The notes beneath the pieces were generated by a model that searched no databases, had not been told where the DNA came from, and saw only the letters and a list, made by a program, of their open reading frames with translations. Made by a program: the position numbers and the translations under genes. A stretch of DNA of 44,231 nucleotides from a virus: the IMG/VR virus record IMGVR_UViG_3300003830_000002. One strand, 5' to 3'. Shown here piece by piece: positions 1,773 through 43,762 of the stretch. Every line of letters begins with the position of its first letter. The stretch's first letter is position 1.

Positions 1773-3254
1773 ATGACTATCCCGGCAAGCGACATTGTTG
1801 TTGTCAATCCCGGCGTCGTTGGTTCCGGCGGTAATCCGCTGGCCCTGAACGGCGTCATTCTCTCCAAAAATACTTTGCTCCCGACCGGCGGCGTGCGTTC
1901 ATTCGCCAGCGCCGACGCCGTGAATGCGTTTTTTGGCCCGTCTTCCACGGAATACGCCCTTGCCCAAACTTACTTTTTGGGCTTTGACAATTCCACGATC
2001 AAACCGGGCACGCTGTATTTCGCCCCGTTTGTGGAAGCCGACCGCGGCGCCTGGTTGCAATCCGGCTCCCTGTCCGGCATGACCCTGGCGCAACTGCAAG
2101 CCCTTTCCGGCGTGCTGACTGTGACCGTCGACGGCACGGCCTTTACGTCTTCAAGCATCAACCTCGCAACGGCAACCAGTTTCAGCAATGCGGCGACGAT
2201 GATTGCCGCGGCCTTCACTGGCACCGGCAAACCGACTTGCGCCTGGAATGCGGTCAACAGCACCTTCACGCTAAACAGCGTCACGACCGGCGCATCCTCG
2301 ACAATCGGCTATGCAACCGGCACCCTGTCCGCGGGCCTCAAGCTGACCAGCGCGACCGGCGCCATCCTGTCCCAAGGTGACATTGCGGACACCCCAGCCA
2401 CGGCCATGGATGCGGTCAAGGCGGCGACTCAGAATTGGGTCGACTTCATGACGATTTGGGAGCCCTTGCTTGCCGACAAAGAACTCTTTGCCGAATGGAC
2501 GAATGCACAAAATCAGCGTTACATGTACGTTTGCTGGGACACGGACGCGCAAGCGATCGTCAACGGTTCGACTACTTGTTTCGGTGCGGTTGCCAAGTCC
2601 TTGGGCTACGACGGCGTCGTGCCGGTTTACAACACTGTGACCCTGGCCGCGTTCATGTTGGGCACCGTGGCGTCGATTGACTTTAGCCGCCTGAATGGTC
2701 GCATCACTTCGGCTTTCAAATCGCAAAGCGGATTCGTGCCCACTGTGACCGACCAGCAAATCGCCGCCAATCTGCTGGCGAACGGTTACAGCTTTTACGG
2801 CTCCTATGCGACCGCAAACGATCAATTCAATTTCCTTTACAACGGCCAAATGTCCGGCAAGTGGAAATGGGTTGATACCTTTGTCGACCAAGTCTATTTG
2901 AACAGTCAATTCCAATTGGCCTTGCTTTCGTTGCTGACCAGCGTTAAGTCGATTCCTTACAACGAATCCGGCTATTCGCTGATTCGTGCGGCCATGATCG
3001 ACCCAATTTCCGCCGGTATCAACTTTGGCAGCATTCGCACCGGCATTACCATGTCGGCGTCGCAAAAAGCCCAAGTGAATCAGGCGGCCGGTTTGGACGT
3101 TTCGACCATCATTGAGCAACAAGGCTATTACCTGCAAATTCTCGACCCTGGTGCGCAAGTGCGCGGCAATCGCGGAACGCCGGTAATCAACTTTTGGTAC
3201 ACCGACGGCGGCGCGGTCCAAAAGATCACCGTCGCATCTATTGACATCATGTAA
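1773..3254 (+). CDS. Tail sheath protein (DUF3383-like)
   Basis: GAGGTG Shine-Dalgarno upstream; 493 aa. The N-terminus MTIPASDIVVVNPGV resembles DUF3383-type sheath proteins. The downstream gene order is tube, frameshifted chaperone, tape measure. Confidence 0.7.
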   Translation: MTIPASDIVVVNPGVVGSGGNPLALNGVILSKNTLLPTGGVRSFASADAVNAFFGPSSTEYALAQTYFLGFDNSTIKPGTLYFAPFVEADRGAWLQSGSLSGMTLAQLQALSGVLTVTVDGTAFTSSSINLATATSFSNAATMIAAAFTGTGKPTCAWNAVNSTFTLNSVTTGASSTIGYATGTLSAGLKLTSATGAILSQGDIADTPATAMDAVKAATQNWVDFMTIWEPLLADKELFAEWTNAQNQRYMYVCWDTDAQAIVNGSTTCFGAVAKSLGYDGVVPVYNTVTLAAFMLGTVASIDFSRLNGRITSAFKSQSGFVPTVTDQQIAANLLANGYSFYGSYATANDQFNFLYNGQMSGKWKWVDTFVDQVYLNSQFQLALLSLLTSVKSIPYNESGYSLIRAAMIDPISAGINFGSIRTGITMSASQKAQVNQAAGLDVSTIIEQQGYYLQILDPGAQVRGNRGTPVINFWYTDGGAVQKITVASIDIM

Positions 3255-4430: not shown

Positions 4431-6299
4431 ATGGCTACAATCATCGACAGCTTGCTTGTAAAACTTGGGCTAGATTCTTCGGAATTTAGCGCGGGTAAGA
4501 ACAAGGTCGACAAGGGCCTAAAGGATACCGGCGCCGAAGCCGATAAAGCCGGGGCGAAGCTCAAAAAATCGGGCAAGGATGGCGCCGAAGGTTTCGAGAA
4601 TGTAGCCAAGAGCGCGACCAAATTCCTGGCAATCATTGGCGGCACCATGGCCGTTAAGCGGTTCATTGAACAAACCGTCGAATCGTCCGCCGCCCTCGAC
4701 CGCCTTTCGCAAAATCTCAGTGCCAACGTGGCGACCGTGTCCGCCTGGTCCAATGCGGCCGAACTTGCCGGGGGCTCCGCTGACGGGCTCCAAGGCACCA
4801 TGGACATGCTCAGTAAGTCGCAAACTGAATTGCAGCTTACCGGACAAAGCGGCCTTATCCCCTATTTCTCCGCGCTGGGCTTGAGCCTGGCGGACACCCA
4901 AGGGAAAGCCAAACCCGTCAACGATTTGCTGCTGGAACTGTCCGACCGTTTCAGCAAAATGGACCGCACCACGGCCAACAATATGGGCCGCATGATGGGC
5001 CTTGACCAAGGGACAATGCAACTTTTGTTAAAGGGGCGTTCCGAAGTCGAATTGATGATTAAGCGGCAAAAGGAATTCGGGGCCGTCACGAAGAAACAGG
5101 CCGAAGAATCAAGCCGCCTCAAATTGGCAATGACTGACAGCCGCCAAAGTTTTGAAGCCTTCGGGCGCGAAATCTTGTCGGCCGCAACCCCAGCCATTGA
5201 AAAGCTCTTTTCCATCATGGCCGATTTTGGCGCATGGATGCGGGAAAACAAGGAATTCGTCAACGCCTTCCTAACCATCATTGCGGTCGGCCTGGGCGCA
5301 ATTGCCGCGGCAACCATCCCCATTAACCTGACTGTGGCCGCCGTCACGGGCCTGGCCGCGGCAATTGCGCTGCTGTATCAGGATTACCAGACATGGAAGC
5401 GCGGCGGGGAAAGTTTCATTGACTGGTCGAAATGGGAGCCCGGATTTAAGGCCGCTGGCGCCGGTATCCGCTGGCTCAAGGACTTGTTAAGCGACTTGGT
5501 TTATCGGGCGATTGCTGGCGCCGACGTCCTGTCCGCCGTGTGGAATCGTGATTGGGATAGGGTCAAATTTGCAGCGGGGGAATTCATGAACGGCAACGGC
5601 AAGACTTACGGCGAATCCCCGCCCCCCGCACCACCCGCCACGGCCCCCACGTCTTCGGCTGGGGGTAAGGGTGCGTCGAACAAAGAGCAAGCCGCCATGG
5701 CCTATTTTCAGGCCCAAGGCTGGTCGCGTGAGCAAGCGGCCGGACTGGCGGCCAATATCAAACGGGAATCGGCTTTTAACGCTGGGGCGGTGGGCGACAA
5801 CGGCAAGGCATACGGCATTGCACAATGGCACCCTGACCGGCAAGCCGAATTTCAAAAGAAGTTTGGCAAACCCATTCAAGGGTCGACGCTTGAAGAGCAA
5901 ATGGCCTTCATGCACTATGAATTGACCCAAGGCAATGAGCGTGCCGCCGGGGCCAAATTGCGCGGAACAAGTAGCGCCGCCGAAGCCGCCGCCGCAGTAT
6001 CCATGCACTATGAACGCCCGGCCGACAGAGCGGGCGAAGCGGCGAAGCGCGGACAAATGGCCCTTGCCATGCTTGGGGGCGTGCCTGGGGCCTCTCAGGC
6101 GGCCGCCGGGGCTGGTGCTGGTCAAGTTGCCCAAGGCAACCTTGCGGGCGCCCCTGGGGCCGGTAATCGAAGCGTTGAAACCCACATTGGAGAGGTCAAA
6201 GTTTATTCAGCGGCCACGGATGCGAACGGCATCGCCAAAGACATGGGCAAGTCGCTGGATTACCTTTTTACATCGCAAGCAAATTACGGGCTGAATTGA
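4431..6299 (+). CDS. Tape measure protein with C-terminal lysozyme-like (phage tail lysozyme) domain
   Basis: 622 aa. It has coiled-coil and hydrophobic central segments (FLTIIAVGLGAIAAATIP). The C-terminal region AAMAYFQAQGWSREQAAGLAANIKRESAFNAGAVGDNGKAYGIAQWHPDR matches the tail-lysozyme pattern. Confidence 0.85.
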   Translation: MATIIDSLLVKLGLDSSEFSAGKNKVDKGLKDTGAEADKAGAKLKKSGKDGAEGFENVAKSATKFLAIIGGTMAVKRFIEQTVESSAALDRLSQNLSANVATVSAWSNAAELAGGSADGLQGTMDMLSKSQTELQLTGQSGLIPYFSALGLSLADTQGKAKPVNDLLLELSDRFSKMDRTTANNMGRMMGLDQGTMQLLLKGRSEVELMIKRQKEFGAVTKKQAEESSRLKLAMTDSRQSFEAFGREILSAATPAIEKLFSIMADFGAWMRENKEFVNAFLTIIAVGLGAIAAATIPINLTVAAVTGLAAAIALLYQDYQTWKRGGESFIDWSKWEPGFKAAGAGIRWLKDLLSDLVYRAIAGADVLSAVWNRDWDRVKFAAGEFMNGNGKTYGESPPPAPPATAPTSSAGGKGASNKEQAAMAYFQAQGWSREQAAGLAANIKRESAFNAGAVGDNGKAYGIAQWHPDRQAEFQKKFGKPIQGSTLEEQMAFMHYELTQGNERAAGAKLRGTSSAAEAAAAVSMHYERPADRAGEAAKRGQMALAMLGGVPGASQAAAGAGAGQVAQGNLAGAPGAGNRSVETHIGEVKVYSAATDANGIAKDMGKSLDYLFTSQANYGLN

Positions 6300-9336: not shown

Positions 9337-10554
9337 ATGATGGCATCCAGCGCAGTACCAAAAATTAAATTTACGGCCGCTGGTTTGGTTATCCCGGCGG
9401 AAACTGACGTATTGGCGGGCGTGCAAGCCGACATGAATGCGGCGTTTGGCGGCGGGTTGAATCCGGCCCTTGAGACTCCGCAAGGTCAACTTGCATCCAG
9501 CCAGGCCGCCGTTATCGCGGACAAAAACAACGAAATTGCCACTTTTGTAAATCAGGTCGACCCGCAATATGCCGCCGACCGCTTTCAGGATGCAATCGGG
9601 CGCATTTACTTTTTGACCCGCAAGCCAGCCACGCCGACCGCCGTTACGGCCACACTCACGGGGCTGGCCGGTACAGTCATTCCCGCGGGCACTTTGGCCC
9701 AAGACACCAGCGGCAACACTTACGCCGCGTCCGGCGCCGCAACAATCAGCATTGCAGGCACCGTCGACGCCGAATTCCAAAATATTGAAAATGGCCCGAT
9801 TCCATGCGCGGCCGGAACCTTGACCCAAGTTTATCAAGCTGTGCCGGGCTGGGACGCAATCAACAACGCGGCCGACGGCACCATGGGCCAGGACGTTGAA
9901 AGCCGGGCCGACTTTGAATACCGCCGCAAGAATTCGGTCGCCTTGAACGGCAAAGGGACGCCCGGCGCAATTTATGCGGAAGTGTTCGCCCTGGCGGACG
10001 TTCTCGACGTCTATGTCAAGGACAACCCCAGCGGCGACACGGTCCTGACGGGAAGCACCAATTATCCTTTGCTCCCGCATTCGGTCTATGTGGCCGTCGT
10101 GGGCGGGGCCGACGCGGACATTGCCGCCGCAATCTGGCGCAAAAAGGACGTGGGGTGTGATTACAACGGCAACACGTCCGTCGTGGTCACTGACGACAGC
10201 GGCTACAACTACCCGCAACCGACCTACACCGTCAAATTTGAGCGCCCCGCGGCGCTTCCGGTCAAATTCGCCGTGCAATTGGTCAATGATGTAAGTTTGC
10301 CGTCCAACATCGTGCAACTTGTTCAAGATGCCATCATTGCGCGGTTTAATGGGGCCGACGGCACGACACGGGAGCGCATGGGCTCATTGGTGCTTGCAAG
10401 CCGCTACTATGGCGCCGTCGTGAGCGTGGCCCCTAACGTGTCCCTTATCAGCGTCTTGATTGGCACCAGCACCCCAACATTGAGCCAGGTCGCCGTCGGC
10501 ATTGACCAAAAGCCGACCTTGAGTGTTGCTGATATTTCCGTTACGCTGGTCTAG
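9337..10554 (+). CDS. Baseplate J-like wedge protein (gpJ / Mu gp47-like)
   Basis: 405 aa. The segment FLTRKPATPTAVTATLTGLAGTVIPAGTLAQDTSGNTYAA is characteristic of Baseplate_J proteins, and the gene position fits. Confidence 0.75.
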   Translation: MMASSAVPKIKFTAAGLVIPAETDVLAGVQADMNAAFGGGLNPALETPQGQLASSQAAVIADKNNEIATFVNQVDPQYAADRFQDAIGRIYFLTRKPATPTAVTATLTGLAGTVIPAGTLAQDTSGNTYAASGAATISIAGTVDAEFQNIENGPIPCAAGTLTQVYQAVPGWDAINNAADGTMGQDVESRADFEYRRKNSVALNGKGTPGAIYAEVFALADVLDVYVKDNPSGDTVLTGSTNYPLLPHSVYVAVVGGADADIAAAIWRKKDVGCDYNGNTSVVVTDDSGYNYPQPTYTVKFERPAALPVKFAVQLVNDVSLPSNIVQLVQDAIIARFNGADGTTRERMGSLVLASRYYGAVVSVAPNVSLISVLIGTSTPTLSQVAVGIDQKPTLSVADISVTLV

Positions 10555-10556
10555 CC

Positions 10557-11222
10557 ATGATTAACGTCGAAGAAACAATAATCAGCCAATACGGCAACAG
10601 CGCCACAATCACGCAATTGGTCCGCAATATGGACCAGTACATTGACCCGCGGACGGACTTCGACACGTTTTACGACTTCGTTTGGAATGTGGAAACCGCC
10701 CAAGGTTTCGGCCTGGATATTTGGGGGCGCATCGTTAACATCGTTAGAACTTTGCTAATTCCGCCCCCAATAGTAAATTTCGGGTTCAATGAGGCAGGGT
10801 CGCAAGCAAAGCCGTTCAACGAAGCCCCCTTTTACGACGGCATTCCGCCAGTATCGGAAACTTACTTTTTGGCCGACGACGCCTATCGTAAATTGATTTT
10901 GGTTAAGGCCCTGGCGAACATTTCAGCCACAAATGCGCCGACGCTGAATCAGCTTTTGCAAAATTTATTTGGCGACCGCGGCCGTTGCTATGTCAACGAC
11001 ATGGGTGGCATGGCGCTACGCTATACGTTTGAATTTGACCTTACGACCTACGAATTTGCTATTATTACGCAATCGGGAGCCTTGCCGCGCCCGGCCGGGG
11101 TCCAGTCGTCAATGCTCAATAGCGCCTTGCCCCTTTTTGGATTTTCGGAAGCTGGCCCGTCGGCCGCACCGTTTGGGCAAGGCGTATTCATTCCACAAGG
11201 GGCAATCAATGCAACTATCTAA
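10557..11222 (+). CDS. DUF2612-like baseplate/tail-fibre adaptor protein
   Basis: 221 aa. The N-terminus MINVEETIISQYGNSATITQLVRNMDQYIDP resembles DUF2612. The gene lies between the J-like protein and the tail fibre. Confidence 0.65.
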   Translation: MINVEETIISQYGNSATITQLVRNMDQYIDPRTDFDTFYDFVWNVETAQGFGLDIWGRIVNIVRTLLIPPPIVNFGFNEAGSQAKPFNEAPFYDGIPPVSETYFLADDAYRKLILVKALANISATNAPTLNQLLQNLFGDRGRCYVNDMGGMALRYTFEFDLTTYEFAIITQSGALPRPAGVQSSMLNSALPLFGFSEAGPSAAPFGQGVFIPQGAINATI

Positions 11223-13518
11223 CATTCCTGGCAAGCTGGTATTGCCGTTCGCCAATGCTGGCGGAAAAAGCACGATTCCGGTCGCCTCTCAGATTGGCAT
11301 TACCGCTGGCGCCGCATCGCTTACGGACGGATTCCCACCCCTGACGCGCACCCCGATTGCGGCCGGTGGCGTGCCCCCTTCGGGCCTGGACATGAACGGC
11401 ATTCTTTACGAAATGTCGGCAATAGTCCGTTGGGCTAACGCTGGCGGCGGGTATCCCTTCGACGGCACTTTCGCCACGGACACCAATGTCGGCGGGTATC
11501 CAAAAGGCGCCCGCATTATGCGGAGCGACGGGCAAGGGTACTGGTTCAACACGGTCGACAGCAACGTGACCGACCCGGAGAGTGCGGGGGCCGCCGCTGC
11601 TGGCTGGGTTCCTGACTTCACCACGGGCGCCGCGACCGTTGCCATGGCGTCTTCAAGCGTCACATTGACCCCGGCGCAATACGGCAAACCGTTGATTGTG
11701 ATTACCGGCACGCTTACCGCCAATTTGAATTTGGTTTTCCCAAACATTGTCGGCAATTGGGTAATCATCAACAGCACGACCGGCAATTTCACAATTACGG
11801 CAAAGACCGCTGCGGGCGTTGGCGTCACCCTTGGGACAGTTACCCCAATCACTGGCGATAGCGTGAATATTTACACAATGGCGTCGGACGCTATCAGCTT
11901 CACGCAATCGGGCGTCGGTGCGGTGGTCCGTACTGTGGCTGACGAATTGCGTGAACAGTTTTCAGTATCTCAGTTTGGCGCAAAGTTCGACGGAACTGAT
12001 GAGTCGAGCGCGGCAATCGCGGCCCTTGCTGCACATAATGTTATATACGTCCCGGAAGGTAAGACGTTAATTGCTAAAAATATTGAACTTTCCGACAATT
12101 CAAGAGTGATTGTCGAAGGCGCTTTGAAATTGCCAAGTGCATGCGCTGATTTTGATAGATTGCTTTACGGCGACTCGTTGAGTGATGTAAATATTACAAT
12201 TAACGAACTTAACGGCAATTACGCTGGTCAAGTCGGTAATATCGGAACGCATCTTATTTATCTGACAAATTGCGTGAGCCCTACAGTCGACTTGCGAAAT
12301 ACCCACGATCACTACGTCGCTAGTGGCGCGGCAACCCCTTCCGTTGATGGTATTCGGAACGCTTCCACCGGGGCTATCTTTCTGTACCAGTGCAGCAAGG
12401 CCGACGTAAACGTCAGGCTTTTAGAAGGCTGGGGGCGTGAAGGTATATACCTTCTCAACTGCACAAAATCCGAAGTCACCGTCGGACATTGCCAGGGTAA
12501 ATACTTAACTGAGTATTCAGGTGTTCAAGTAAGTGGTGTAAATAACTCAATCAATCGAGCGTCCGTCGACTTTGCGGGTGCTTCCGCTGTGGGTTTCGAT
12601 ACCTCATATGGATTTTTATCAAATGTAATCGCAACCAATACCCGCGAAAACAGCGGCGTCAACTTCGGACACACTGGCTATCCGGCAACGGGTTCAGTAG
12701 CCGAGAACATAGTCGTTGACGGTTCTTTTGGGGCTGGTATATCAGTGTTGTCGTCATCGCAGGATTTAACAATCAACAACTTCTCTGTACAGAATACAGG
12801 TGAGTCCGGTATCCAGTTTTCCGACGGTGTGATTGGTGGAAAGTTGAGTAATGGGGCAGTGTCTTACCCGGCACGCTGGAACCTCGTTGCTGGTGCTGTC
12901 GCTGAAATCCAAACATCGAACGTCAAAAGTAGCGTAAGGGATGCGGCGACCTTGCTGGTTAATGTAACCGCGGGCGCTTTTGCGGCGGGCGAGACTGTCA
13001 CATCCATAGGCGGTTCGGCTCAAGTTAGAAAGGCGTTGCAAAACTTAACAGGTAGCCAACAGCGCCTATTCTTCGTGTCTAATGTCCCAGCATCTTACGT
13101 CGTGGGCAACAGCATTACTGGTTCTGGCGGGGCGGTCGGGACAATTGCGGGTGTGTACGTGCCAACAGAATACAACGAAACCGCAGGCGGTCAATTTATT
13201 CGCGACCCGCGCTACTTCCCTGGCACTGGCGACCAAATCCGCTTTCCCGACGGTACGGCAATTTACACATGGAATTTAGCTTGTGCCTATACGGGTTCCG
13301 GTGCGATTCAGACATTCACTCAAAATTTCTTTAGTAACACAATATGGGCGTCCGCCCCATATGTCACCGCCACTGTGTCAAGCCACAGCAGCACGTCGGG
13401 TTTTGTCATCAACTATTTGGAAGCTAACGCAACAACGGCCGCCGCATCAATCATGATTAACGCAACAGCTAACCAAACTTACGGCGTAAATATCATGGCA
13501 GTTGGTCGCTGGAAATAA
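11209..13518 (+). CDS. Tail fibre/tailspike with conserved N-terminal anchor and pectate-lyase-like beta-helix domain
   Basis: ATG 11209 overlaps the upstream gene by 14 nt. The N-terminal motif GFPPLTRTPIAAGGVPPSGLDMNGILYE is common in fibre anchors. FGAKFDGTDESSAAIAALAAHNVIYVPEGKTLIA resembles the start of a pectate-lyase-fold depolymerase domain. The 10969 start in the track lies inside the previous gene. Confidence 0.75.
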   Translation: MQLSNIPGKLVLPFANAGGKSTIPVASQIGITAGAASLTDGFPPLTRTPIAAGGVPPSGLDMNGILYEMSAIVRWANAGGGYPFDGTFATDTNVGGYPKGARIMRSDGQGYWFNTVDSNVTDPESAGAAAAGWVPDFTTGAATVAMASSSVTLTPAQYGKPLIVITGTLTANLNLVFPNIVGNWVIINSTTGNFTITAKTAAGVGVTLGTVTPITGDSVNIYTMASDAISFTQSGVGAVVRTVADELREQFSVSQFGAKFDGTDESSAAIAALAAHNVIYVPEGKTLIAKNIELSDNSRVIVEGALKLPSACADFDRLLYGDSLSDVNITINELNGNYAGQVGNIGTHLIYLTNCVSPTVDLRNTHDHYVASGAATPSVDGIRNASTGAIFLYQCSKADVNVRLLEGWGREGIYLLNCTKSEVTVGHCQGKYLTEYSGVQVSGVNNSINRASVDFAGASAVGFDTSYGFLSNVIATNTRENSGVNFGHTGYPATGSVAENIVVDGSFGAGISVLSSSQDLTINNFSVQNTGESGIQFSDGVIGGKLSNGAVSYPARWNLVAGAVAEIQTSNVKSSVRDAATLLVNVTAGAFAAGETVTSIGGSAQVRKALQNLTGSQQRLFFVSNVPASYVVGNSITGSGGAVGTIAGVYVPTEYNETAGGQFIRDPRYFPGTGDQIRFPDGTAIYTWNLACAYTGSGAIQTFTQNFFSNTIWASAPYVTATVSSHSSTSGFVINYLEANATTAAASIMINATANQTYGVNIMAVGRWK

Positions 13519-13529
13519 TAGGGGTCGAC

Positions 13530-13787
13530 ATGGATAACCAGCAACTTTTTAACATGGTTTTCGCCATCGCCGGGGCCTTGGGCGGCTGGTGGATGAAAGC
13601 CATGTGGGAAGGTCTTAAAGACCTGCAGAAAGCCGATCAAAAATTATCATCGGAAGTATCCGACTTGAAAGTGCTGGTCGCCGGGGGTTACGTGCGAACG
13701 GAAGCGTTTGACAAACTGGCGACGGCCATATTCAGCAAACTTGACCGCATTGAAGACAAAATTGATTTGAAGGCTGACAAACCATGA
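13530..13787 (+). CDS. Small membrane/coiled-coil protein, holin or antiholin candidate
   Basis: 85 aa with one N-terminal hydrophobic helix (FNMVFAIAGALGGWWM) followed by a charged coiled coil. ATGA overlap with the endolysin gene. Confidence 0.5.
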   Translation: MDNQQLFNMVFAIAGALGGWWMKAMWEGLKDLQKADQKLSSEVSDLKVLVAGGYVRTEAFDKLATAIFSKLDRIEDKIDLKADKP

Positions 13788-33087: not shown

Positions 33088-33663
33088 TTACTTGTAATCG
33101 AAGTCGCCAGGGCGTGGCACTCGCGCCCAATCTGGAACCGGCGCAATAGCGACTTGCGCGTCAAATTTCCCAAAAATTGAAGTCCTGGCCCGTTCGGGAT
33201 TGAAGGCGACCGACGTCTTCGCGTTGAACATATCGGCCGCAATTTGGCGAAGCGTTGCGACGTCGTCCTGATGACAATTGAAAGCATACATTCCGCTATT
33301 TTCCGCCCGGCTATTTGGTGCGAAATGCGTGTCGACGTCCGAGTTGGTCAACATTGGGTAACGCATCATTGCCGTCGCCCACGTAATAGCCGCGAACGCA
33401 TCCCGGTCGGCGTCAAGCAACCTAAAGCGTGCTTGAACAAGTTGCTCTTTAATTAGCCGTTTGAGATTGGCGGCGTCGGCCGCTTCGGTCAATCTAGCGT
33501 TACGCGCAACGGCCGCCGTCGAAACAGCGTCGCCCCGGATGCAATCATAACAAGCCCCGGATTGCGTATATCTAAAAGTAAGATGCCCGTTTTTGCATTG
33601 CTTGCCGGTAAAATATTTGTTATCGCCGTCGCAGACGGCTTGCTTTCGTGTCTTAATTTCCAT
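33088..33663 (-). CDS. Zinc-ribbon protein (regulator candidate), unknown family
   Basis: ATG 33663. The N-terminus MEIKTRKQAVCDGDNKYFTGKQCKNGHLTFRYTQSGACYDC has a CxxxxxxxxxCxxxH...CxxC layout. It is the only minus-strand gene between the early and packaging modules. No clear Shine-Dalgarno, so the start is uncertain. Confidence 0.55.
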   Translation of the reverse strand: MEIKTRKQAVCDGDNKYFTGKQCKNGHLTFRYTQSGACYDCIRGDAVSTAAVARNARLTEAADAANLKRLIKEQLVQARFRLLDADRDAFAAITWATAMMRYPMLTNSDVDTHFAPNSRAENSGMYAFNCHQDDVATLRQIAADMFNAKTSVAFNPERARTSIFGKFDAQVAIAPVPDWARVPRPGDFDYK

Positions 33664-33782
33664 GATCTTTATCAAAGTTAAGATGTTAGCCACGACTATA
33701 TCACACTTTTTTAAGAAAACAAGCACCCCGGCACCGCAACCCCGACGACGTTGAAACCTACGGCGCTGTATACACATCACAT

Positions 33783-36212: not shown

Positions 36213-37727
36213 ATGAACCCAATCAAACGCCCCGTCGGTCGCCCTCGCAAGCCAGCCGCCACTATCGCCCCGCCAGCCCCCAAGGGTTCCGGCCTACGTC
36301 GGGCGGCAACCAAAGCCAAGAGCATTGCGGCCGACGGCGCCCTCAAGCCCTACGCCTACCCAATCAAGCCGCCCACCCTGGCGCCTGGCGTTGTCCCGGC
36401 CGGTGTGGTCGCTCCCGTCATGGCAACTGACGCGAACCCCTACAGCTTTGCGCAAGACGTGTACCCCGGCGGCGGATTCCCTGGCTTTTCGTACCTTTCG
36501 CAGCTTGCGACCCGTGCTGAATATCGGGCGTTCGCTTCCACCATGTCGACCGAACTTACCCGCGAATGGTTGGAATTCACCAGCAAGCAAGACGACGACA
36601 CGGACACCGCCGAAAAAATCAAACTCATTGAAGAGGAATTTAAGCGGCTGGGTGTGCGCGGCGTGCTGCAACGGGCGGCGGAAGGCGACTGCTATTTCGG
36701 CCGGGCTCAAATCTTCATTGAGATTGACGGCGCCGACCGCGGCACCCCGCTAATTTTGGACCCGCGCACGGTCAAGAAAGGAAGCCTAACGCGGGTCGTT
36801 CCTGTGGAAGCCATTTGGACCACGCCGTCGGGTTACAACGCCCTGGACCCAGCGGCCCCGGATTTTTACAAGCCGTCCAAGTGGTACATGCTGGGGCAAG
36901 AGGTCCATGCTTCCCGCCTGATGACGGTCGTAACCCGGCCGCTCCCGGATATTCTCAAGCCTGCTTTTAACTTCGCTGGCATGTCACTTTCCCAGCTTGC
37001 GGAACCCTACGTCGACAACTGGCTCCGCACCCGTCAAAGCGTTGCGGACCTTATCAACAATTTCAGCATTACGGTGCTTGCCACGGCAATGGACCAAGTG
37101 TTACAGGGTGACGATGACGGCACGGACCTTTTCGCACGGGCTGACCTTTTCACGGCCACGCGGAGCAATCGCGGCTTGATGCTGCTGGACAAAGAGCGGG
37201 AAGAGTTGGTGCAGGTCAACACCCCGTTGTCGGGGCTTCATGAGTTGCAGGCGCAAAGCCAAGAACACATGTGCAGCGTGTCGCGCATGCCCGCCATTGT
37301 CTTGACGGGTATCAGCCCCAGCGGCTTGAACGCTTCCAGCGACGGAGAGATTCGGATTTTCTACGATTGGGTCGCGGCGCAACAGGAAGCCTTTTGGCGC
37401 GAACCGCTGGAAGTAATTTTGAAGGTCGTGCAGCTTTCGCTATTCGGGGAAATCGACCCGGATATCGGCTTTACCTTCGTGCCCCTGTACCAAATGACAC
37501 CCAAGGAAGAGTCGGAAATCAGGGCGGCCGATGGTGTAACGGATTGCGCCTATGTGGCCGCCGGTATCATCGACCCCAGCGAAGTGCGGGACCGCCTGGC
37601 GAAAGACCCGAACAGCGGTTATCAGGGATTGGACACCGACGCCGTTATAGTGCCCCCGGCGCCGCCAGCGGACGAACAAGACCCCGGCGCGGCGGTTCCC
37701 GCGGATAAATTGGAGAATACGCCATGA
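36213..37727 (+). CDS. Portal protein (DUF1073-like)
   Basis: 504 aa, directly after terL. The segment FSYLSQLATRAEYRAFASTMSTELTREWLEF resembles DUF1073 portals. Confidence 0.7.
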   Translation: MNPIKRPVGRPRKPAATIAPPAPKGSGLRRAATKAKSIAADGALKPYAYPIKPPTLAPGVVPAGVVAPVMATDANPYSFAQDVYPGGGFPGFSYLSQLATRAEYRAFASTMSTELTREWLEFTSKQDDDTDTAEKIKLIEEEFKRLGVRGVLQRAAEGDCYFGRAQIFIEIDGADRGTPLILDPRTVKKGSLTRVVPVEAIWTTPSGYNALDPAAPDFYKPSKWYMLGQEVHASRLMTVVTRPLPDILKPAFNFAGMSLSQLAEPYVDNWLRTRQSVADLINNFSITVLATAMDQVLQGDDDGTDLFARADLFTATRSNRGLMLLDKEREELVQVNTPLSGLHELQAQSQEHMCSVSRMPAIVLTGISPSGLNASSDGEIRIFYDWVAAQQEAFWREPLEVILKVVQLSLFGEIDPDIGFTFVPLYQMTPKEESEIRAADGVTDCAYVAAGIIDPSEVRDRLAKDPNSGYQGLDTDAVIVPPAPPADEQDPGAAVPADKLENTP

Positions 37728-37852
37728 TGCTGCAAACCATGTTTTACCCGACATTCTGGTTTCAATTCTGGCTTGCGGCCATGACCCCGGCGCGGAGTAG
37801 CGCGACGGTTATCCAATTCAAGCGGCCGACCAAAGATGCCAAAGCAACCTAA
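37724..37852 (+). CDS. 42-aa hydrophobic micro-ORF candidate between the portal and Mu-F-like genes
   Basis: ATGA overlap with the portal stop, with GGAGA 7 nt upstream. The product is MMLQTMFYPTFWFQFWLAAMTPARSSATVIQFKRPTKDAKAT. It overlaps the next gene by 17 nt. Confidence 0.35.
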   Translation: MMLQTMFYPTFWFQFWLAAMTPARSSATVIQFKRPTKDAKAT

Positions 37853-38630
37853 AACCGTTCGGGCCATCCATGCGAACCGCGGGGTCGAAGCGAAATACCG
37901 CAAGGCCCTGCAGCGCATGATTGCCGAAATGCACGGGTCGGTCGAATACTGGCTTACGGCCGCCTATCGCAAAGACCCGCCCCGCATGCTGGCGCTGGTC
38001 GAACAAGCGCAAGACGCCGCACCCAGCGCCAAAATCAAAAAGATATTGGACGAACTGGCCCGGCGCTGGATTGCCCGCTTTGACGAATGGGCGCCCAAGA
38101 TTGCCGACGCCTATTTGCAAGGCATGTTCAAGACCACCGACAGCGCAATGCGCCTGGCGCTCAAGGATGCGGGGTGGACGGTTGAATTCAAGATGACGCC
38201 CGCCGTTCGTGACGCATTGAAGGCGTCACTTGAAGAAAACGTCGGCCTTATCCGGTCCATTCCTGAAAAATATTTGCAACAAGTAGAGGGCACCGTTATG
38301 CGCTCCTACAGCACCGGGCGCGACCTTGCGACGATGGTCAAGGAATTAAAGCAACTTTACCCGGCGGCCAGTCACCGGGCCGAACTGATAGCGCGGGACC
38401 AGTCAAACAAGGCGAACGCCGTCGTCAACCGTGCGCGGCAAATGGAACTTGGGATTACGGAAGCCATTTGGATGCACAGCCACGCGGGGAAGACTCCACG
38501 CCCTGACCATGTGGCCGCGAATGGAAAACGGTATAACATCGCGGAAGGCTGTAAAATTTCCGGCGAATTTATCCAGCCAGGCGAAGAAATAAATTGCCGC
38601 TGCACTAGCCGGGCAATATTACCTTTTTAG
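37836..38630 (+). CDS. Head morphogenesis protein (Mu F / SPP1 gp7 family)
   Basis: The C-terminal motif WMHSHAGKTPRPDHVAANGKRY...PGEEINCRCTS is typical of this family. Confidence 0.75.
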   Translation: MPKQPKTVRAIHANRGVEAKYRKALQRMIAEMHGSVEYWLTAAYRKDPPRMLALVEQAQDAAPSAKIKKILDELARRWIARFDEWAPKIADAYLQGMFKTTDSAMRLALKDAGWTVEFKMTPAVRDALKASLEENVGLIRSIPEKYLQQVEGTVMRSYSTGRDLATMVKELKQLYPAASHRAELIARDQSNKANAVVNRARQMELGITEAIWMHSHAGKTPRPDHVAANGKRYNIAEGCKISGEFIQPGEEINCRCTSRAILPF

Positions 38631-38638
38631 GGGTCGAC

Positions 38639-39979
38639 ATGAGTGGAACTCAGAAACTTTTAGACGACGGGGTCGTCGCGCAAGGCGTCGTGATGCTTTC
38701 GGAATCAGGTGACGTCGGTTTGAGTTTTGCCGATTCGGTCGCGTTAGATTCTTTTGGCCGTCTTCGGACTTCTTCACCAACTTCAATTTTTGATAGTCAA
38801 CAGGAATATGGCTTAGACACTTTGCGGCTATGGGATTGCTCCGCAAACGGGGTCGCCGCCACACTGTCAAGTAACGGAAGTGCAGTTAGTGGGGCAAATT
38901 CCGTTGGCCCGCGTAATGCCGACTCGCGGTTAACGCCAATTACAGTAGGGACTACAAACGGACATTACGCAATTTTGCAATCAAGGCAATATGCCCGATA
39001 CATCCCAGGAAAAGGCCATTTGATATTTTTAACTGGCGTTTTCGCTTCACGTATCGACTACTTGGCAAAAATTGTTTTGCGTTCATCTGGCAGCGGAAGT
39101 GTTGTCGATAATGCAATTCAGCAAGATTCTTGGAATATCGACAAGTTTGACGGCAACGGTCCGTCGGGCGTAATTCTTGATTTAACAAAAACTCAAATTC
39201 TATTTATACAAGCGCAATGGCTTGGGGTCGGTCGGGTTATCGTTGGATTTGATATTGACGGGAAATTGTTTCCGGCGCACGCATTCACACATGCGAACAA
39301 GCTGACAATTCCGTATTCTCAAACCTTCAATTTACCAGTCAGGGGGGAGTTGGTGAACACCGGAGTCGCTGAAAGCAAATCGCGCTTTGGTTATTTCGAT
39401 TCGACCAATGGTGTTTTTGTTGAATCAGTCATGCCGGTCGCGGGCGGAACGGTTGCGTTCTGTTGTTGCTCAGTGCAAAGTGAAGGCGGTTCGCAATCAA
39501 GAGGTTTTGCTAATTCAGCGCCGACGGGAATATCGACTATTGCCGTAACCGCTCGACGGCCCGTATTGTCAATTCGTCCAAAATTAACCTATAACGGGAT
39601 TACGAACCGGGCGCACATTGAAGACGTTGAATATTTAACCAAAGCGACGACCAATGATTGCCTTGTTGAAATTATTGTTGGCGGGACGTTGACCGGGGCG
39701 AGTTTTCAAAGTGTCGGCGCTAATTCCGTTGCCGAGTACGATGTGTCCGCGACGGCGATATCTGGCGGCGAAGTTCTGGCAAAAGGTTTTGCGTTATCGG
39801 GTTCAGGTCAATCGTCATTGCAACCAAGCGGCGGGTCTCTTGATATCAGATCACCTTTGGTTTTGTCAAAAATCGACGCACTTGCCGCATTGCAAATACC
39901 CGTAACGATTGTTTGCACGCCCTTTACTGGGACAAGCAACGTGACTTCTATTATCAACTGGCACGAACAGGTCGTTTAA
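38639..39979 (+). CDS. Unassigned 446-aa beta-rich protein in a low-GC insertion
   Basis: AGGGG Shine-Dalgarno. The ORF is long and clean despite a marked G+C drop. The composition is rich in Gly/Ser/Thr/Val. No family recognised. Confidence 0.7.
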   Translation: MSGTQKLLDDGVVAQGVVMLSESGDVGLSFADSVALDSFGRLRTSSPTSIFDSQQEYGLDTLRLWDCSANGVAATLSSNGSAVSGANSVGPRNADSRLTPITVGTTNGHYAILQSRQYARYIPGKGHLIFLTGVFASRIDYLAKIVLRSSGSGSVVDNAIQQDSWNIDKFDGNGPSGVILDLTKTQILFIQAQWLGVGRVIVGFDIDGKLFPAHAFTHANKLTIPYSQTFNLPVRGELVNTGVAESKSRFGYFDSTNGVFVESVMPVAGGTVAFCCCSVQSEGGSQSRGFANSAPTGISTIAVTARRPVLSIRPKLTYNGITNRAHIEDVEYLTKATTNDCLVEIIVGGTLTGASFQSVGANSVAEYDVSATAISGGEVLAKGFALSGSGQSSLQPSGGSLDIRSPLVLSKIDALAALQIPVTIVCTPFTGTSNVTSIINWHEQVV

Positions 39980-39980
39980 T

Positions 39981-40517
39981 ATGTATCCATCAAATCAACC
40001 GGGGAACCGGAACAATCGGACCAAGGTCGACAGTGAATTGGGGTCGTTCTATTCGGGAACGCAATTCCGCACGTTCAAGGAAATCACCCTTGCCGCCGGG
40101 GCTTCGCTGAATGTCAAAATGGTGCGCCCGCTGGATATCATCATTCGCGGTTTTCAAATGCACGTAAGCACCGGGGAAATGCGTTGCGAGATTTACCGCG
40201 GCGCCACGCCTGGGGGAACTTGGAACGGCACCCTTCCAGTTATTGGCAAATGCGAATTTACCGACAACCCGCTTCCGCTTTATGTCCCGCAATGTTCATT
40301 GACGTCGGGCGGCACCTTTACCGGCGGCACGCTTTATGATTTGATGCACGTTAAGACGGTCGGGGCAACGGGCCAGGCTTCCACAATTGGCGACGAAATG
40401 GAAAGCCAGCTTGGAGCCCCAGCCAATAGCACGGGCATTTATAAATTCATGAACCCCGGAAATTCTGACGCCGTAGGCATCTTTGCCATGTGGTGGGAAG
40501 AATTGCCTACAAAGTAG
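39981..40517 (+). CDS. Unassigned 178-aa beta-rich protein, partner of 38639-39979
   Basis: Starts 2 nt after the upstream stop; G+C is intermediate. No family recognised. Confidence 0.65.
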   Translation: MYPSNQPGNRNNRTKVDSELGSFYSGTQFRTFKEITLAAGASLNVKMVRPLDIIIRGFQMHVSTGEMRCEIYRGATPGGTWNGTLPVIGKCEFTDNPLPLYVPQCSLTSGGTFTGGTLYDLMHVKTVGATGQASTIGDEMESQLGAPANSTGIYKFMNPGNSDAVGIFAMWWEELPTK

Positions 40518-40538: not shown

Positions 40539-41795
40539 ATGCCTATCTTGAGATTAGCTTTTGACCGAACAGCACGCCGGATTGACGCCGACGGGCGTTT
40601 GCACGTCGACCGCTCCCATATCTCCAAGGCCACGGTCAACCCCTATTACGGCAAAGAGATTCCGGGATTTGATGCCCTGGGCCTGCAGCCTGATACGGTT
40701 TACCGCTTGCTTCGTGACCCTGTGGAACTTGAGCGCGGCGCCCCCAGCTTTGCGCGCCTTCCAATTCTCTCCGAACATGTCCCCGTTACCGTGGATGCGC
40801 CCCGCCCCGATCTGGTCGTCGGCGCTATCGGTTCCGAAATAACTTTTTCCGCCCCCTATCTTGACGCTGATTTATGCGTATGGGACGCGACCGCAATTGC
40901 TGGCATTGAAACTGACAAGGTGCGGGAACTTTCGTGCGCTTATCGTTACGTGCCAGTCATGGAGCCGGGTGAATTTGAAGGCCAGGCGTACGACGGCCGC
41001 ATGACGGAAATTCAAGGAAATCACCTGGCGTTAGTTGAGGTCGGCCGCGCTGGGTCTGATGTAGTTGTGGCCGACCGTAACCCTTTCACTTTCAAGGAAT
41101 CCGCCATGAAGATGACCAAACTGGGCAAGGCCCTTTTTGCGGCATTGTGCGCGGCCTCTCCTGTACTGGCAGCGGATTCCGCTTTGCCTGCACTGGTAGG
41201 CCCCGCAACCCGCAAGAATTTTAAAACCGCCGACGTCCGGGCCAAACTTTTGGCCCTCGACGCTTCGCTCGATTCAAACAAACTCGACGCCGTTCTCGAC
41301 GCGATTTTGGACGTTGAGCAAGAGCCGAAGGCAGTCGAAACCCCGGCCGCCGCCGCTGATGAATCGCCAGCCGACAAGGTTCGCGCCATGCTGGCCGGTA
41401 AAGTTGACGATGAAACTTTGAACGCTATTTGCGCCCTCATTGCACCACCGGCCGCCGCCGCTGATTCCGACCCGGTCGACCCCGGCATGAAGAAAGAGGA
41501 AGTAACCGCGGCAATGGACGGTTTGCGTAAAGACTTGCGCGAAGCCGAAGAGGCCCGCCGTGATGTTCGCGCAATCGTTGGCGACGTCATGGGTATGGAT
41601 TCGGCCGCCGAAGTCTACGGCTTCGCCCTGGACCACATGAAGGTCGACCGCAAGGATGTTGAAGGCGCCCCGGCCCTTCGCGCACTCTTCAAGGTCGCCG
41701 CTTCCAAGTCTGCCACTCCGGCCCCGCGCATCGCTCAAGATGCTGGCGGCCTGGATAAGCAGTTTCCGGGCGCCGCCCGTTTCCGTAACGCTTAA
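40539..41795 (+). CDS. Prohead protease/scaffold protein (DUF2213-like N-terminal domain with Ala/Asp-rich C-terminal half)
   Basis: RRIDADGRLHVDRSHISKATVNPYYGKEIPG matches the DUF2213 N-terminal pattern. The C-terminal half is helical and charged, like a scaffold. Confidence 0.7.
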   Translation: MPILRLAFDRTARRIDADGRLHVDRSHISKATVNPYYGKEIPGFDALGLQPDTVYRLLRDPVELERGAPSFARLPILSEHVPVTVDAPRPDLVVGAIGSEITFSAPYLDADLCVWDATAIAGIETDKVRELSCAYRYVPVMEPGEFEGQAYDGRMTEIQGNHLALVEVGRAGSDVVVADRNPFTFKESAMKMTKLGKALFAALCAASPVLAADSALPALVGPATRKNFKTADVRAKLLALDASLDSNKLDAVLDAILDVEQEPKAVETPAAAADESPADKVRAMLAGKVDDETLNAICALIAPPAAAADSDPVDPGMKKEEVTAAMDGLRKDLREAEEARRDVRAIVGDVMGMDSAAEVYGFALDHMKVDRKDVEGAPALRALFKVAASKSATPAPRIAQDAGGLDKQFPGAARFRNA

Positions 41796-41809: not shown

Positions 41810-42718
41810 ATGAGCGGCTTTCAAAAAACGGTCAACCTGACTCCCGCCCCCGCGGTAGCTGGTGACTTTGCATCATCCAATCCACGGGCGACCGTGCTGG
41901 CTGGTCCTGGCGGCCTTGTTGCTGGCCTGGGCGGCGTCACCGTTGGTAAATTCGCATGGGTCGATACTGACGGCATTACTGTCCAAAGTTTCGGCACCAA
42001 AGCGACGGCCCCTTCGGGTTTCGTTCACCGCGAACAGCAAGCCTTGATTCAAACCTATTTGGCTGAATCGGGCATGAACATTCCGCAGGGCTTCCCCGTC
42101 ACGCTGCACAATGAGGGCGACTTTTGGGCCGTCAATGGTGGCGCGGGCGCATTCAGTGTGGGCGACGCGGTTTATGCGAACTACGCCGACGGCACCGTCG
42201 CACAATCGGCGGCCACGAATGCCACGGCGACCGGCTCCATGGGTGCAACCTTCACCGCTTCGGGCTCCGGCACGAACTTGACCGTTTCCGCGGTTACTGG
42301 CGTGCTGACCGTTGGCGAGACTTTGAGCGGCACCGGCATTCCAGCCGGTACGACCATCGTTTCGCAAACCAGCGGCACCACTGGCGGCGCGGGCGTCTAT
42401 GTCACCAGTGTGGCGACCACAATCTCCGCGGCAACCGCGACCAGCTTCGGCAATGTGCTGACCGTTACCGCCGTTGCATCCGGCTCCCTGGATATTGGCG
42501 AATCCGTGACCGGCACCGGCATTCCCGCTGGCGCTGTGCTGGCTTCGCAAATTTCCGGTGCAACCGGCGGCGTCGGCGTATATACCCTGAGCCTTCCGGC
42601 CACGGCGTATGCTGCTTCCACCACCGTGACCAGTGTCGGCGGCGTAGCTGCTACCAACTGGAAAGCGCAATCGGCCGCCGCTGTGGGCGAACTCGTCAAA
42701 ATCTCTACCTGGGGTTAA
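41810..42718 (+). CDS. Head decoration-like protein with an internal tandem duplication
   Basis: AAAGGAG Shine-Dalgarno. It lies between scaffold and capsid genes. Two units of about 56 aa share LTV.AV.G.L..GE...GTGIPAG......Q.SG.TGG.GVY. Confidence 0.6.
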   Translation: MSGFQKTVNLTPAPAVAGDFASSNPRATVLAGPGGLVAGLGGVTVGKFAWVDTDGITVQSFGTKATAPSGFVHREQQALIQTYLAESGMNIPQGFPVTLHNEGDFWAVNGGAGAFSVGDAVYANYADGTVAQSAATNATATGSMGATFTASGSGTNLTVSAVTGVLTVGETLSGTGIPAGTTIVSQTSGTTGGAGVYVTSVATTISAATATSFGNVLTVTAVASGSLDIGESVTGTGIPAGAVLASQISGATGGVGVYTLSLPATAYAASTTVTSVGGVAATNWKAQSAAAVGELVKISTWG

Positions 42719-42721
42719 ACC

Positions 42722-43762
42722 ATGAATCCAATCCTTCAAGCACTGATGGAACGCGCCGGGGTCCATTTCATGGGCCAGCCCGGCGTCGACTTCCAAAGCC
42801 CTGGCGCATCCTTGCGCCTGGCACACGACGGCTTTGCGTGCGACGCACAGCCCGCCCTTATCACCACCAGCAATGCCGGTATTCCGGCCTTCCTGACTAC
42901 CTTTATCGACCCGAAACTGATTGAAATTTTGGTTTCCCCGATGAAGGCGGCCGAAGTTGTCGGCGGCGAAGTCAAAAAGGGCGATTGGACCACCGAAACG
43001 GCAATGTTCCCGGTTGTGGAATCCACGGGCGAAACTTCGTCGTATGGTGACTACTCCGAAAACGGCCAAGCCGGCGTCAACTCCAATTTCCCGCAACGCC
43101 AAAGCTATCATTATCAAGTGATGACGCAATGGGGTGAACGCGAACTGGAACGCGCCGGCTTGGCCCGCATCGACTGGGCCAATCGCATGAACATTGCGTC
43201 GATTCTGACCCTGAACAAGTTTCAGAATAAGACGTATTTCTTCGGCGTGTCCGGCCTGCAAAACTATGGCCTGCTGAACGACCCGAACCTGTCCGCCGCT
43301 ATCGTGCCCACCACGAAGACCGCGGGTGGCACGGGCTGGGCGAATGCCACGGCGCAAGAAATCAATTCGGACGTGCAAAAGCTCTACAAGCAATTGCAAA
43401 CCCAAGCGGGCGGCCTGGTTGAACTCGACACCAAGATGACCTTGGCAATGTCCCCAATTTCGGAAGTCTATTTGACCAAGACGACCGACTTCAATGTCAA
43501 CGTGCAGGACATTCTGAAAAAGAATTTCCCCAATTTGACCGTGAAGACCGCGCCGGAATACACCACGGCGTCCGGGGAACTGGTGCAACTGATCGTGGAC
43601 GAAGTGGAAGGCCAGCGCACGGCCGACACCGCTTTTACCGAAAAGCTCCGCGCCCACCCAATCGTCGTGCAGTCTTCCAGCTTCAAGCAAAAGAAGTCGC
43701 AAGGCACCTGGGGCACCGTGATTTTCCGCCCCGCCTTCATTGCCCAAATGTTGGGTGTGTAA
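42722..43762 (+). CDS. Major capsid protein (DUF2184-like)
   Basis: 346 aa. In my recollection this family partners with DUF2213. It is followed by a strong terminator. Confidence 0.75.
   Translation: MNPILQALMERAGVHFMGQPGVDFQSPGASLRLAHDGFACDAQPALITTSNAGIPAFLTTFIDPKLIEILVSPMKAAEVVGGEVKKGDWTTETAMFPVVESTGETSSYGDYSENGQAGVNSNFPQRQSYHYQVMTQWGERELERAGLARIDWANRMNIASILTLNKFQNKTYFFGVSGLQNYGLLNDPNLSAAIVPTTKTAGGTGWANATAQEINSDVQKLYKQLQTQAGGLVELDTKMTLAMSPISEVYLTKTTDFNVNVQDILKKNFPNLTVKTAPEYTTASGELVQLIVDEVEGQRTADTAFTEKLRAHPIVVQSSSFKQKKSQGTWGTVIFRPAFIAQMLGV

Follow-up and report, generated by a model that had tools for sequence, protein, structure and literature searches.

The virus record IMGVR_UViG_3300003830_000002 of IMG/VR, a DNA of 44,231 nucleotides that we analysed at its whole length (the window), contains in its head module two adjacent open reading frames (ORFs) that a first-pass annotation, made from the sequence letters, had taken for a single inserted cassette of low G+C content (GC). 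We refer to these ORFs and their products of 446 and 178 amino acids (aa) as p446 and p178. Our analysis showed that p446 alone was inserted and that its horizontal acquisition is well supported. The reading to which we give about an even chance is that p446 is a recently acquired, free-standing copy of a distal virion module that occurs widely, mounted on the particle by an N-terminal tag and adding a surface-binding specificity, and that p178 is an older, independent accessory. The window is a metagenomic myovirus genome of ~44 kb that encodes a sheath, a tape measure, a baseplate, a tail fibre and a head module of the E217/XM1 type, arranged in the order terS, terL, portal (PF06381), Mu-F (PF04233), p446, p178, DUF2213 protease/scaffold, cement and major capsid protein. 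ORF positions and Pfam matches agree with the earlier placement of both ORFs between the Mu-F-like and DUF2213 genes (Table 1).

The borders of the insertion were defined against the closest relatives, L004, L008 and L010, which are 92-95% identical at the DNA level. Since blastn homology to these genomes ends at 38633 and restarts at 39981, the insertion is p446 only, comprising the ORF and an 8-nt leader; the p446 ATG lies 8 nt after the Mu-F stop codon (38630). In the relatives p178 has a G-rich ribosome-binding site, and the insertion separates this site from the p178 start codon; only one base lies between the p446 stop codon and the ATG of p178. Because of this position p446 would be co-transcribed with the head genes, and p178 would now probably be translationally coupled to p446. 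Consensus scans revealed no flanking repeats, promoter or terminator above shuffled controls at the insertion, and none flanks p446, which lacks the promoter and terminator of its own expected of a classical moron.

The composition of p446 also sets it apart. Its GC of 0.479 and its GC at third codon positions (GC3) of 0.44 are the lowest of the 46 ORFs on both measures; the next-lowest GC3 is 0.55, and the other ORFs average 0.655 (standard deviation 0.047), giving p446 a z score of -4.5. A composition as low as this was found in 0.3% of gene-sized windows. The three hand counts of GC given previously (25/60, 25/60 and 42/60) were recomputed and all found to be exact, and the description of a low-GC cassette holds for p446 but not for p178, whose GC3 is normal at 0.62 and whose mildly low GC (0.534) stems from first codon positions. 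The closest homologue of p446, P0002 (71% identity), is a gene with a GC of 0.407 on a podovirus contig of 43% GC that encodes an SU10-type portal and a Terminase_3 large terminase, and this setting is consistent with a lower-GC donor lineage for p446. The clean gene-sized indel, the extreme GC3 and this nearest homologue in an unrelated low-GC podovirus together uphold the earlier proposal of horizontal acquisition as far as p446 is concerned. The gene would have been acquired recently and precisely, as a gene-sized unit, from a phage lineage of lower GC.

The large-plus-small gene pair that had been proposed as one inserted unit did not survive this comparison, as p178 is not newly inserted and the two genes assort independently: p178 occurs without p446, and in L094, where Mu-F and the protease are 81% and 86% identical to those of the window, Mu-F is followed by the p446 homologue P0085 (55% identity) and then by the protease, without p178. 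An obligate pair was rejected on the same grounds, with p178 alone at 14 loci and a p446 homologue alone in L094 and in L128, L129 and L140. Profile-profile comparison of the two families found no relationship (hhalign probability 0.2%). On its left the variable slot is bounded by the Mu-F protein; L004-L010 have a 94% identical Mu-F, directly followed by a p178 of 96-99% identity. We conclude that p178 is an older resident accessory of this sub-clade with no obligate p446 partner.

In order to place p446 among known proteins, we compared it with profile collections. It belongs to PHROG 1645, annotated as 'virion structural protein' and filed by PHROG under 'head and packaging', to which it gives a full-length profile match (E 4e-75). 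This family is without a Pfam model, a solved structure or an assigned function. A word-index homology search returned 1,281 relatives of p446, and an exhaustive search with a profile built from an alignment of 71 sequences (A1) returned 6,658 clusters at 50% identity, 4,927 of them at E <= 1e-10. The alignment has 55 invariant and ~100 nearly invariant columns, and p446 conforms to all of them, including the body motifs LDxFGRLRxS, DSQQEYGL, GFDIDG and the C-terminal NWHEQ. Homologues align with p446 from about aa 24-36 onward; before the conserved LDxFxRLR start, the N-termini of the family are hypervariable in length and sequence. Among the best 150 members, those that are longer carry the PHROG 1645 domain always at the extreme C-terminus, behind extensions of up to ~1,800 aa, and in P0307 (2,205 aa) a tail-fibre segment (PHROG 1980) lies upstream of it. 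A Pfam scan of the N-terminal extensions of long members detected DUF6385 in one of them and nothing else. Judged from these sequences, a C-terminal placement of this kind appears to mark a distal module that can be exchanged.

The genomic settings of the family are diverse. In podoviruses, homologues directly follow P22 gp10-like ('Phage_stabilise') or SU10-adaptor genes; some adjoin long fibre-like and pectate-lyase-like genes, and many lie in tail-fibre clusters. T4-like cyanophages carry the homologue between terS and terL, and p446-family genes adjoin portal or scaffold-like genes in L083 and L087. In the distant lineage of L128, L129 and L140, whose Mu-F is only ~26% identical to that of the window, the slot after Mu-F likewise contains a p446 homologue. 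Since a single contig of a metagenome-assembled genome (MAG) carried a homologue among 185,579 species genomes, PHROG 1645 belongs to lytic phages and viromes rather than to prophages, and a prophage or lysogenic-conversion role for p446 was rejected on this count. One member has been detected in particles: ORF190 of Synechococcus phage S-SZBM1 was found by liquid chromatography-mass spectrometry (LC-MS) in CsCl-purified virions (PMC9146016 Table 1, Table S1), at low abundance, with 3 unique peptides, 7.1% coverage and an exponentially modified protein abundance index (emPAI) of 0.23 (PMC9146016). We identified this ORF (121033-122307, 424 aa) as our tblastn match H26, 26% identical to p446 over 91% of its length. 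For the relatives (vB_AsaM-56, RSB1 ORF46 and the HMO-2011 proteome), a search of the literature yielded no usable functional work.

Two further associations were observed around the family. In L097 (9313-11691), a podovirus with an SU10-type capsid, genes for two glycosyltransferases, a methyltransferase and a cytidylyltransferase lie directly downstream of the p446 homologue P0007 and may represent a glycan-modification cluster linked to PHROG 1645. Beta-rich proteins of ~110 aa with the motif 'LYTVPA' recurrently adjoin p446 homologues, upstream or downstream, in unrelated phages. They include HMO-2011 gp64 (L099 29032-29370, reverse strand) and ORFs at L086 7675-8004, L087 916-1248 and L090 8196-8528, with further loci in L107, L110, L115, L123, L130, L135, L169 and L170; the analysed genome has no member. 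Downstream of p446 the corresponding position is taken by p178, but BLAST found no similarity between p178 and these proteins, and a common small jelly-roll fold for the two is a conjecture.

The predicted structures of p446 and p178 were then compared with solved ones. The AlphaFold2 models, with 46% and 51% strand and 2-3% helix, bear out the all-beta character that had been read from the sequences, and the noted richness in Gly, Ser, Thr and Val is likewise real, these residues making up 39.5% of p446 and 34.3% of p178, compared with 19-26% for terL, portal, Mu-F and protease. The p446 model has a predicted local distance difference test score (pLDDT) of 85 and a predicted template modelling (TM) score of 0.79, with residues 1-45 poorly defined. 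Foldseek matches in the PDB were weak (E 3e-4 to 5e-3) and comprised a tandem of carbohydrate-binding modules (CBMs) of family CBM22, xylanase J, lectins and PHM. The only capsid-type jelly-roll match was a weak one to the triple jelly-roll turret protein of STIV (4ind, E 5e-3). A double jelly-roll major capsid protein was considered and rejected for p446, the top matches being CBMs and glycosidases and none being strong. Strong matches were obtained in BFVD, all of them to viral proteins that are uncharacterised, encoded by tailed phages, haloarchaeal tailed viruses or giant viruses. The p178 model (pLDDT 84) is a single jelly-roll or cupin-like domain with weak Foldseek matches in the PDB to a nodavirus capsid (E 2.5e-4), cupin dioxygenase subunits and the phi812 spike knob. 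The earlier guess of jelly-roll or beta-sandwich folds therefore matches the models, but the resemblance to solved structures is weak. Searching PDB sequences with both family profiles returned no relative, and decoration and cement families gave no PDB sequence match and no Foldseek match for either protein. Neither protein had a match in Pfam, NCBIfam or PADLOC (PADLOC up to E 1). No signal peptide, transmembrane segment, toxin motif or enzyme motif was detected in p446, which contains 6 Cys.

A homology search with p178 returned only 49 relatives. In the T7-like phage RpT1 its homologue lies between lysozyme-like and primase/helicase genes, and in RSB1 and a Zobellviridae genome homologues follow lysis genes. 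Pseudomonas phage Bitten has the homologue as the C-terminal part of a 272-aa protein, whose gene lies upstream of terL and of one annotated 'head fiber'. These contexts give no consistent indication of a structural role, and the homologues in the class II region of T7-like phages would predict a non-structural one.

A conserved tag is formed by the first ~26 residues of p446, MSGTQKLLDDGVVAQGVVMLSESGDV, and is shared by at least seven otherwise unrelated slot proteins. The carriers include a 278-298-aa family (L022, L034, L028, L081 and, as the third gene of its slot, L237), a protein of 708 aa (L023/L024) and small proteins of 109, 111, 170 and 81 aa (L031, L217, L042 and L040), which in L031 and L042 are followed by larger beta-rich proteins. 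P0085 also starts with the tag, and P0002 has a weaker form. Conservation is at the level of the peptide, with synonymous differences in the DNA, and wherever Mu-F was detected immediately upstream the conserved Asp-Gly core begins 37-41 nt past its stop codon. We found no second copy in the analysed genome, for example in the tail fibre or baseplate proteins. Scanning IMG/VR for degenerate DNA versions of the tag returned 83 stretches, most of them chance matches in non-coding frames and about ten genuine; a match in L191 was discarded as a false positive, the ORF occupying the major tail protein position. Outside the slot a single tag was found, at the start of a 130-aa ORF in L201 (4698-5090). 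This ORF directly follows a tail-fibre gene and precedes a second fibre-like gene, and the L201 phage shares 32-35% identity with the analysed genome in baseplate J, the gp221-like protein and the N-terminus of the fibre. Sec-signal-like starts were observed in L028 (~5077-5973), in the p446 homologues of L141 and L173 and in slot ORFs of L058, for example MLKIIIALLLFASNFVYA followed by the tag.

In order to establish how the slot between Mu-F and the protease is used elsewhere, IMG/VR was scanned with the protease, giving 80 loci with the same head module, 72 of which hold both flanking genes, and slot contents were read by tblastn with the head proteins of the analysed genome. The slot is empty (0-151 nt) in 20 of these 72 relatives, contains p178 alone in 14 and other genes (0.3-3.3 kb) in 38, and holds p446 in none. 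The flanking genes had been called normal neighbours, which is so in about a quarter of the relatives and not in the remainder. The first-pass annotation had named universal carriage of the two genes in related phages, or a standard head-assembly function assigned by profile searches, as contrary to its view of an accessory module; carriage proved to be 0/72 for p446 and 14/72 for p178, and no profile gives either protein such a function. The other cargo comprises a 489-aa protein with a polysaccharide-deacetylase domain, a BspA-type leucine-rich repeat (LRR) protein, repeat-rich fibre-like proteins, the 708-aa protein and 278-298-aa family mentioned above, HNH endonucleases and ORFs with signal peptides. 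Cultured relatives vary as well: Pseudomonas phage Amjad_SA has an empty slot, Aeromonas phage 4_D05 has two reverse-strand genes there, and Orisa02 has four small ones. The Mu-F|DUF2213 junction is thus a permissive late-operon hotspot for the exchange of accessory genes.

Some slot ORFs bear marks of their own. The HNH endonuclease ORFs (216-218 aa; L021 ~5345-5995, L031 ~5345-5995 and L039 ~5299-5955) open with a duplicated protease N-terminus (MPTMKLAFDRSARRIDADGRLHVDRSH...), which suggests insertion of a homing endonuclease at the 5' end of the protease gene. A 335-aa ORF in L066 (~4982-5989) ends with the C-terminal motif of Mu-F (...NCRCTSRAILPI) and has a body unrelated to Mu-F; it may reflect an intein or another insertion inside Mu-F. 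The portal|Mu-F junction (37694-37837) is a second variable junction, with no DNA homology to relatives that are 92-95% identical elsewhere, and portal-Mu-F gaps reach ~2.3 kb in the relatives L063, L047 and L025.

We infer that the tag is a shared docking peptide for interchangeable modules. It would dock swappable distal modules at one common site on the particle, and p446 would thereby give the phage an extra specificity for surface glycans or receptors. For the location of the dock, L201 and the architecture of the family lean towards the tail, and the genomic position and the post-Mu-F recurrence lean towards the head; the baseplate or tail-fibre region would be somewhat favoured over a capsid site. 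The surface, fibre or receptor-binding function guessed at previously agrees with the C-terminal position of the domain, one tail-fibre fusion, the fibre clusters and one virion proteome, and for the analysed phage itself we infer virion incorporation, tag docking and a binding activity of p446. Several observations weigh against this proposal. No match to a tail-fibre family in Pfam or PHROG and no recognised anchor or shaft was found in p446, which is encoded in the head operon and not in the tail/baseplate module. Foldseek gave low TM scores (best E 3e-4), so 'lectin-like' denotes a fold class only, and the tag region of the model is of low confidence (pLDDT 45-63). The homologue in HMO-2011, gp65, lies among auxiliary genes, and those of cyanomyoviruses lie among accessory genes, outside fibre clusters. 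The sole proteomic detection concerns a low-abundance homologue just 26% identical to p446, and the 'virion structural protein' label of the family is largely annotation transfer. A single locus, L201, links the tag to the tail, and the Sec-like N-termini argue against cytoplasmic virion assembly for the few members that have them.

A broader proposal, which we consider possible yet somewhat doubtful, is that the Mu-F|protease slot is a 'plug-in' locus, where a docking peptide of ~26 residues mounts unrelated, recombination-swapped modules on one virion site. These modules may comprise PHROG 1645 proteins, the 278-aa family, the 708-aa protein and small adaptors followed by LamG-like or LRR proteins. 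As a p446 homologue recurs after Mu-F even where Mu-F is only ~26% identical, the arrangement is suggested to be selected and not accidental.

The same recurrence can be read in favour of a capsid-associated accessory, that is, p446 and possibly p178 as a head fibre, vertex or decoration protein whose tag docks the capsid, the cement protein or the portal vertex and which is assembled with the head. We consider this unlikely, even though p446 lies between Mu-F and the protease/scaffold gene, co-transcribed with head genes, and post-Mu-F homologues are found in three lineages (the analysed genome, L094 and L128/L129/L140). The homologues next to portal or scaffold-like genes in L083 and L087, the PHROG category and the 'head fiber' neighbour of the p178 homologue in Bitten fit it as well; but many homologues belong to tail-fibre clusters or have a tail-fibre segment fused ahead of them, the low abundance in S-SZBM1 virions (emPAI 0.23) is unlike a capsid-wide decoration, and the phage already has a cement protein, with neither p446 nor p178 resembling any known decoration or cement family. 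Position moreover says little about function in a slot that also houses HNH endonucleases and reverse-strand genes. A role outside the virion is distinctly improbable for p446: one or both proteins would be late accessories acting on the infected cell or its envelope, by receptor masking or modification, superinfection exclusion or by blocking re-adsorption to debris. Detection of a homologue in purified virions, the near absence of the family from bacterial genomes and prophages, the lack of a signal peptide or transmembrane segment in p446 and the C-terminal location of the domain in long fibre-like proteins all speak against it, and are set against a moron-like slot whose cargo includes a polysaccharide-deacetylase protein, reverse-strand genes and signal-peptide ORFs, Sec-like signals on some p446-family and tag-bearing proteins, and the homologues among auxiliary genes of HMO-2011 and cyanomyoviruses. 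This explanation is stronger for p178 alone, whose homologues lie in early/middle or lysis regions of the T7-like phages RpT1 and RSB1 and beside lysozymes; for p178 it is about as likely as a structural role.

Least probable, and in our view very much so, is that the slot encodes internal head cargo injected with the DNA, the tag being a capsid-targeting sequence possibly removed by the DUF2213 protease. The shared N-terminal peptide of unrelated proteins encoded between Mu-F and the prohead protease/scaffold gene would fit such a system, as would the gene for an LPD29 polyvalent-protein domain upstream of Mu-F in L094 and the variable phage-delivered effector domains that Mu-F domains are known to carry (PMC5576092). 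However, typical ejected proteins differ from p446, which is large, compact and all-beta, contains 6 Cys and lacks toxin or enzyme motifs; the p446 family domain is C-terminal in fibre-like giants and present in tail clusters, the tag also occurs in the L201 fibre cluster, and Mu-F is in its short form, unfused to cargo.

Returning to p446 as a tag-mounted distal module, we compared it with systems already described. The PHROG 1645 members S-SZBM1 ORF190, S-RIM2 SWTG_00075 and HMO-2011 gp65 show homology to p446 over the full body (tblastn, 26-31% identity over 78-96%) and resemble it in being 419-446 aa long, predicted all-beta and sporadic in variable genome regions. They differ in their N-terminus, which is without the slot tag, in their T4-like cyanomyovirus or podovirus hosts as opposed to a 44-kb myovirus with an E217/XM1 head, and, for many homologues of the family, in having an 'LYTVPA' neighbour, which is absent beside p446. 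Modular tail-fibre and receptor-binding proteins combine a conserved N-terminal anchor with an exchangeable C-terminal tip and can be branched, as in G7C gp63.1/gp66 and the CBA120 tailspikes. The logic of p446 appears to be the same, with a short lineage-specific N-terminus and what would be a horizontally exchanged distal module, but it has no shaft, coiled coil, beta-helix or recognised anchor and is encoded in the head operon. The internal proteins of T4 carry a capsid-targeting sequence, a short conserved N-terminal peptide on unrelated proteins whose genes lie close to that of the prohead protease/scaffold. An N-terminal peptide is likewise shared by at least seven unrelated proteins of the slot, whereas the cargo here is large, beta-rich and fibre- or lectin-like, the tag also occurs in a fibre cluster and no cleavage motif was identified.

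Mu-F polymorphic toxins and polyvalent proteins were reportedly described by Iyer et al. in 2017. As in these systems, cargo that is hypervariable and exchanged by recombination comes directly behind Mu-F, on the downstream side of portal; there, however, a toxin or enzyme is fused to Mu-F, often with a small immunity gene, whereas the slot follows a short Mu-F of 264 aa with separate tagged ORFs that have their own start codons and in which no toxin domain was detected. In the SPP1 gp7-like Mu-F polymorphic toxins the variable cargo is fused to the C-terminus of Mu-F (Jamet et al. 2017, PMC5576092). Cargo of this kind was rejected for p446 on account of the Mu-F stop codon at 38630, the ATG of its own and the lack of any toxin or enzyme family. 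Morons and mosaicism at gene boundaries are well known in tailed phages. Like a moron, p446 is a compositionally deviant single gene at a gene boundary of a late operon, absent from near-identical relatives; unlike one, it has no promoter or terminator above background and appears to use a pre-existing ribosome-binding site and read-through transcription. On present evidence the insertion is ordinary phage mosaicism at a hotspot, and p446 is likely an additional host-binding accessory and not a new kind of system.

Less ordinary are the huge uncharacterised family, which spans cyanomyoviruses, P22-like and SU10-like podoviruses and the analysed myovirus group, and the shared tag on unrelated cargo of a head operon. 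Near-isogenic genomes with and without p446 co-occur in public metagenomes with exact borders, and constitute a natural experiment on the function of the family. If the tag is a true docking peptide, it would be useful for engineering phages with exchangeable binding modules; a true plug-in slot would be a cassette system that diversifies host interaction from the head operon instead of the tail module.

Table 1. Coordinates of p446, its parts and the other features of the window. The genome likewise encodes baseplate hub and wedge proteins.
Feature	Position	Strand	Basis or remark
Insertion relative to closest relatives	38634..39980	+	1,347 nt where L004, L008 and L010 have 6 nt
p446 (446 aa)	38639..39979	+	PHROG 1645, E 4e-75 (254 bits)
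N-terminal tag, aa 1-29, MSGTQKLLDDGVVAQGVVMLSESGDVGLS	38639..38725	+	Common to otherwise unrelated slot proteins
Conserved family body of p446 (aa 30-446), predicted all-beta	38726..39976	+	A1 invariant columns from F39, L42 of LDxFGRLR
p178 (178 aa)	39981..40517	+	PHROG 13935, E 3.6e-24
Mu-F-like minor head protein, short form (264 aa)	37836..38630	+	PF04233, E 2.7e-12; PHROG 324, E 7.5e-79
DUF2213 head maturation protease/scaffold, right slot border	40539..41795	+	PF09979, E 1e-46; PHROG 2229, E 1.2e-114
Cement protein, XM1 gp53/E217 gp24-type	41810-42718		Pfam cement domain = aa 4-158
Tail sheath	1773-3254		
Baseplate J	9337-10554		
gp221-like protein	10557-11222		
Portal	36213-37727		PF06381
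Major capsid protein	42722-43762		
Tape measure	4431-6299		
Tail fibre ORF	10969-13518		

Beyond the slot, the cement protein carries at aa ~159-302 two repeats of ~70 aa (…GTGIPAG…GG.GVY…) with weak PHROG matches to tail-fibre families. As the cement proteins of cultured relatives are just 159-167 aa long, the capsid of the analysed phage may bear repeat domains that project outward from this protein.

The statement that the genome has only two low-GC islands was found to be correct with gene-size windows (11.6-12.5 kb and 38.2-39.2 kb) and incorrect with 600-bp windows, which reveal a third patch at 33.3-34.2 kb (0.47). This patch overlaps a reverse-strand ORF of 230 aa (33088-33780) that lies just upstream of terS and belongs to PHROG 1081, of unknown function. 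The island at 11.6-13.8 kb spans the distal two-thirds of the tail-fibre ORF together with an 85-aa lipoprotein-like ORF (13530-13787, PHROG 462), and is consistent with exchange of the fibre tip.

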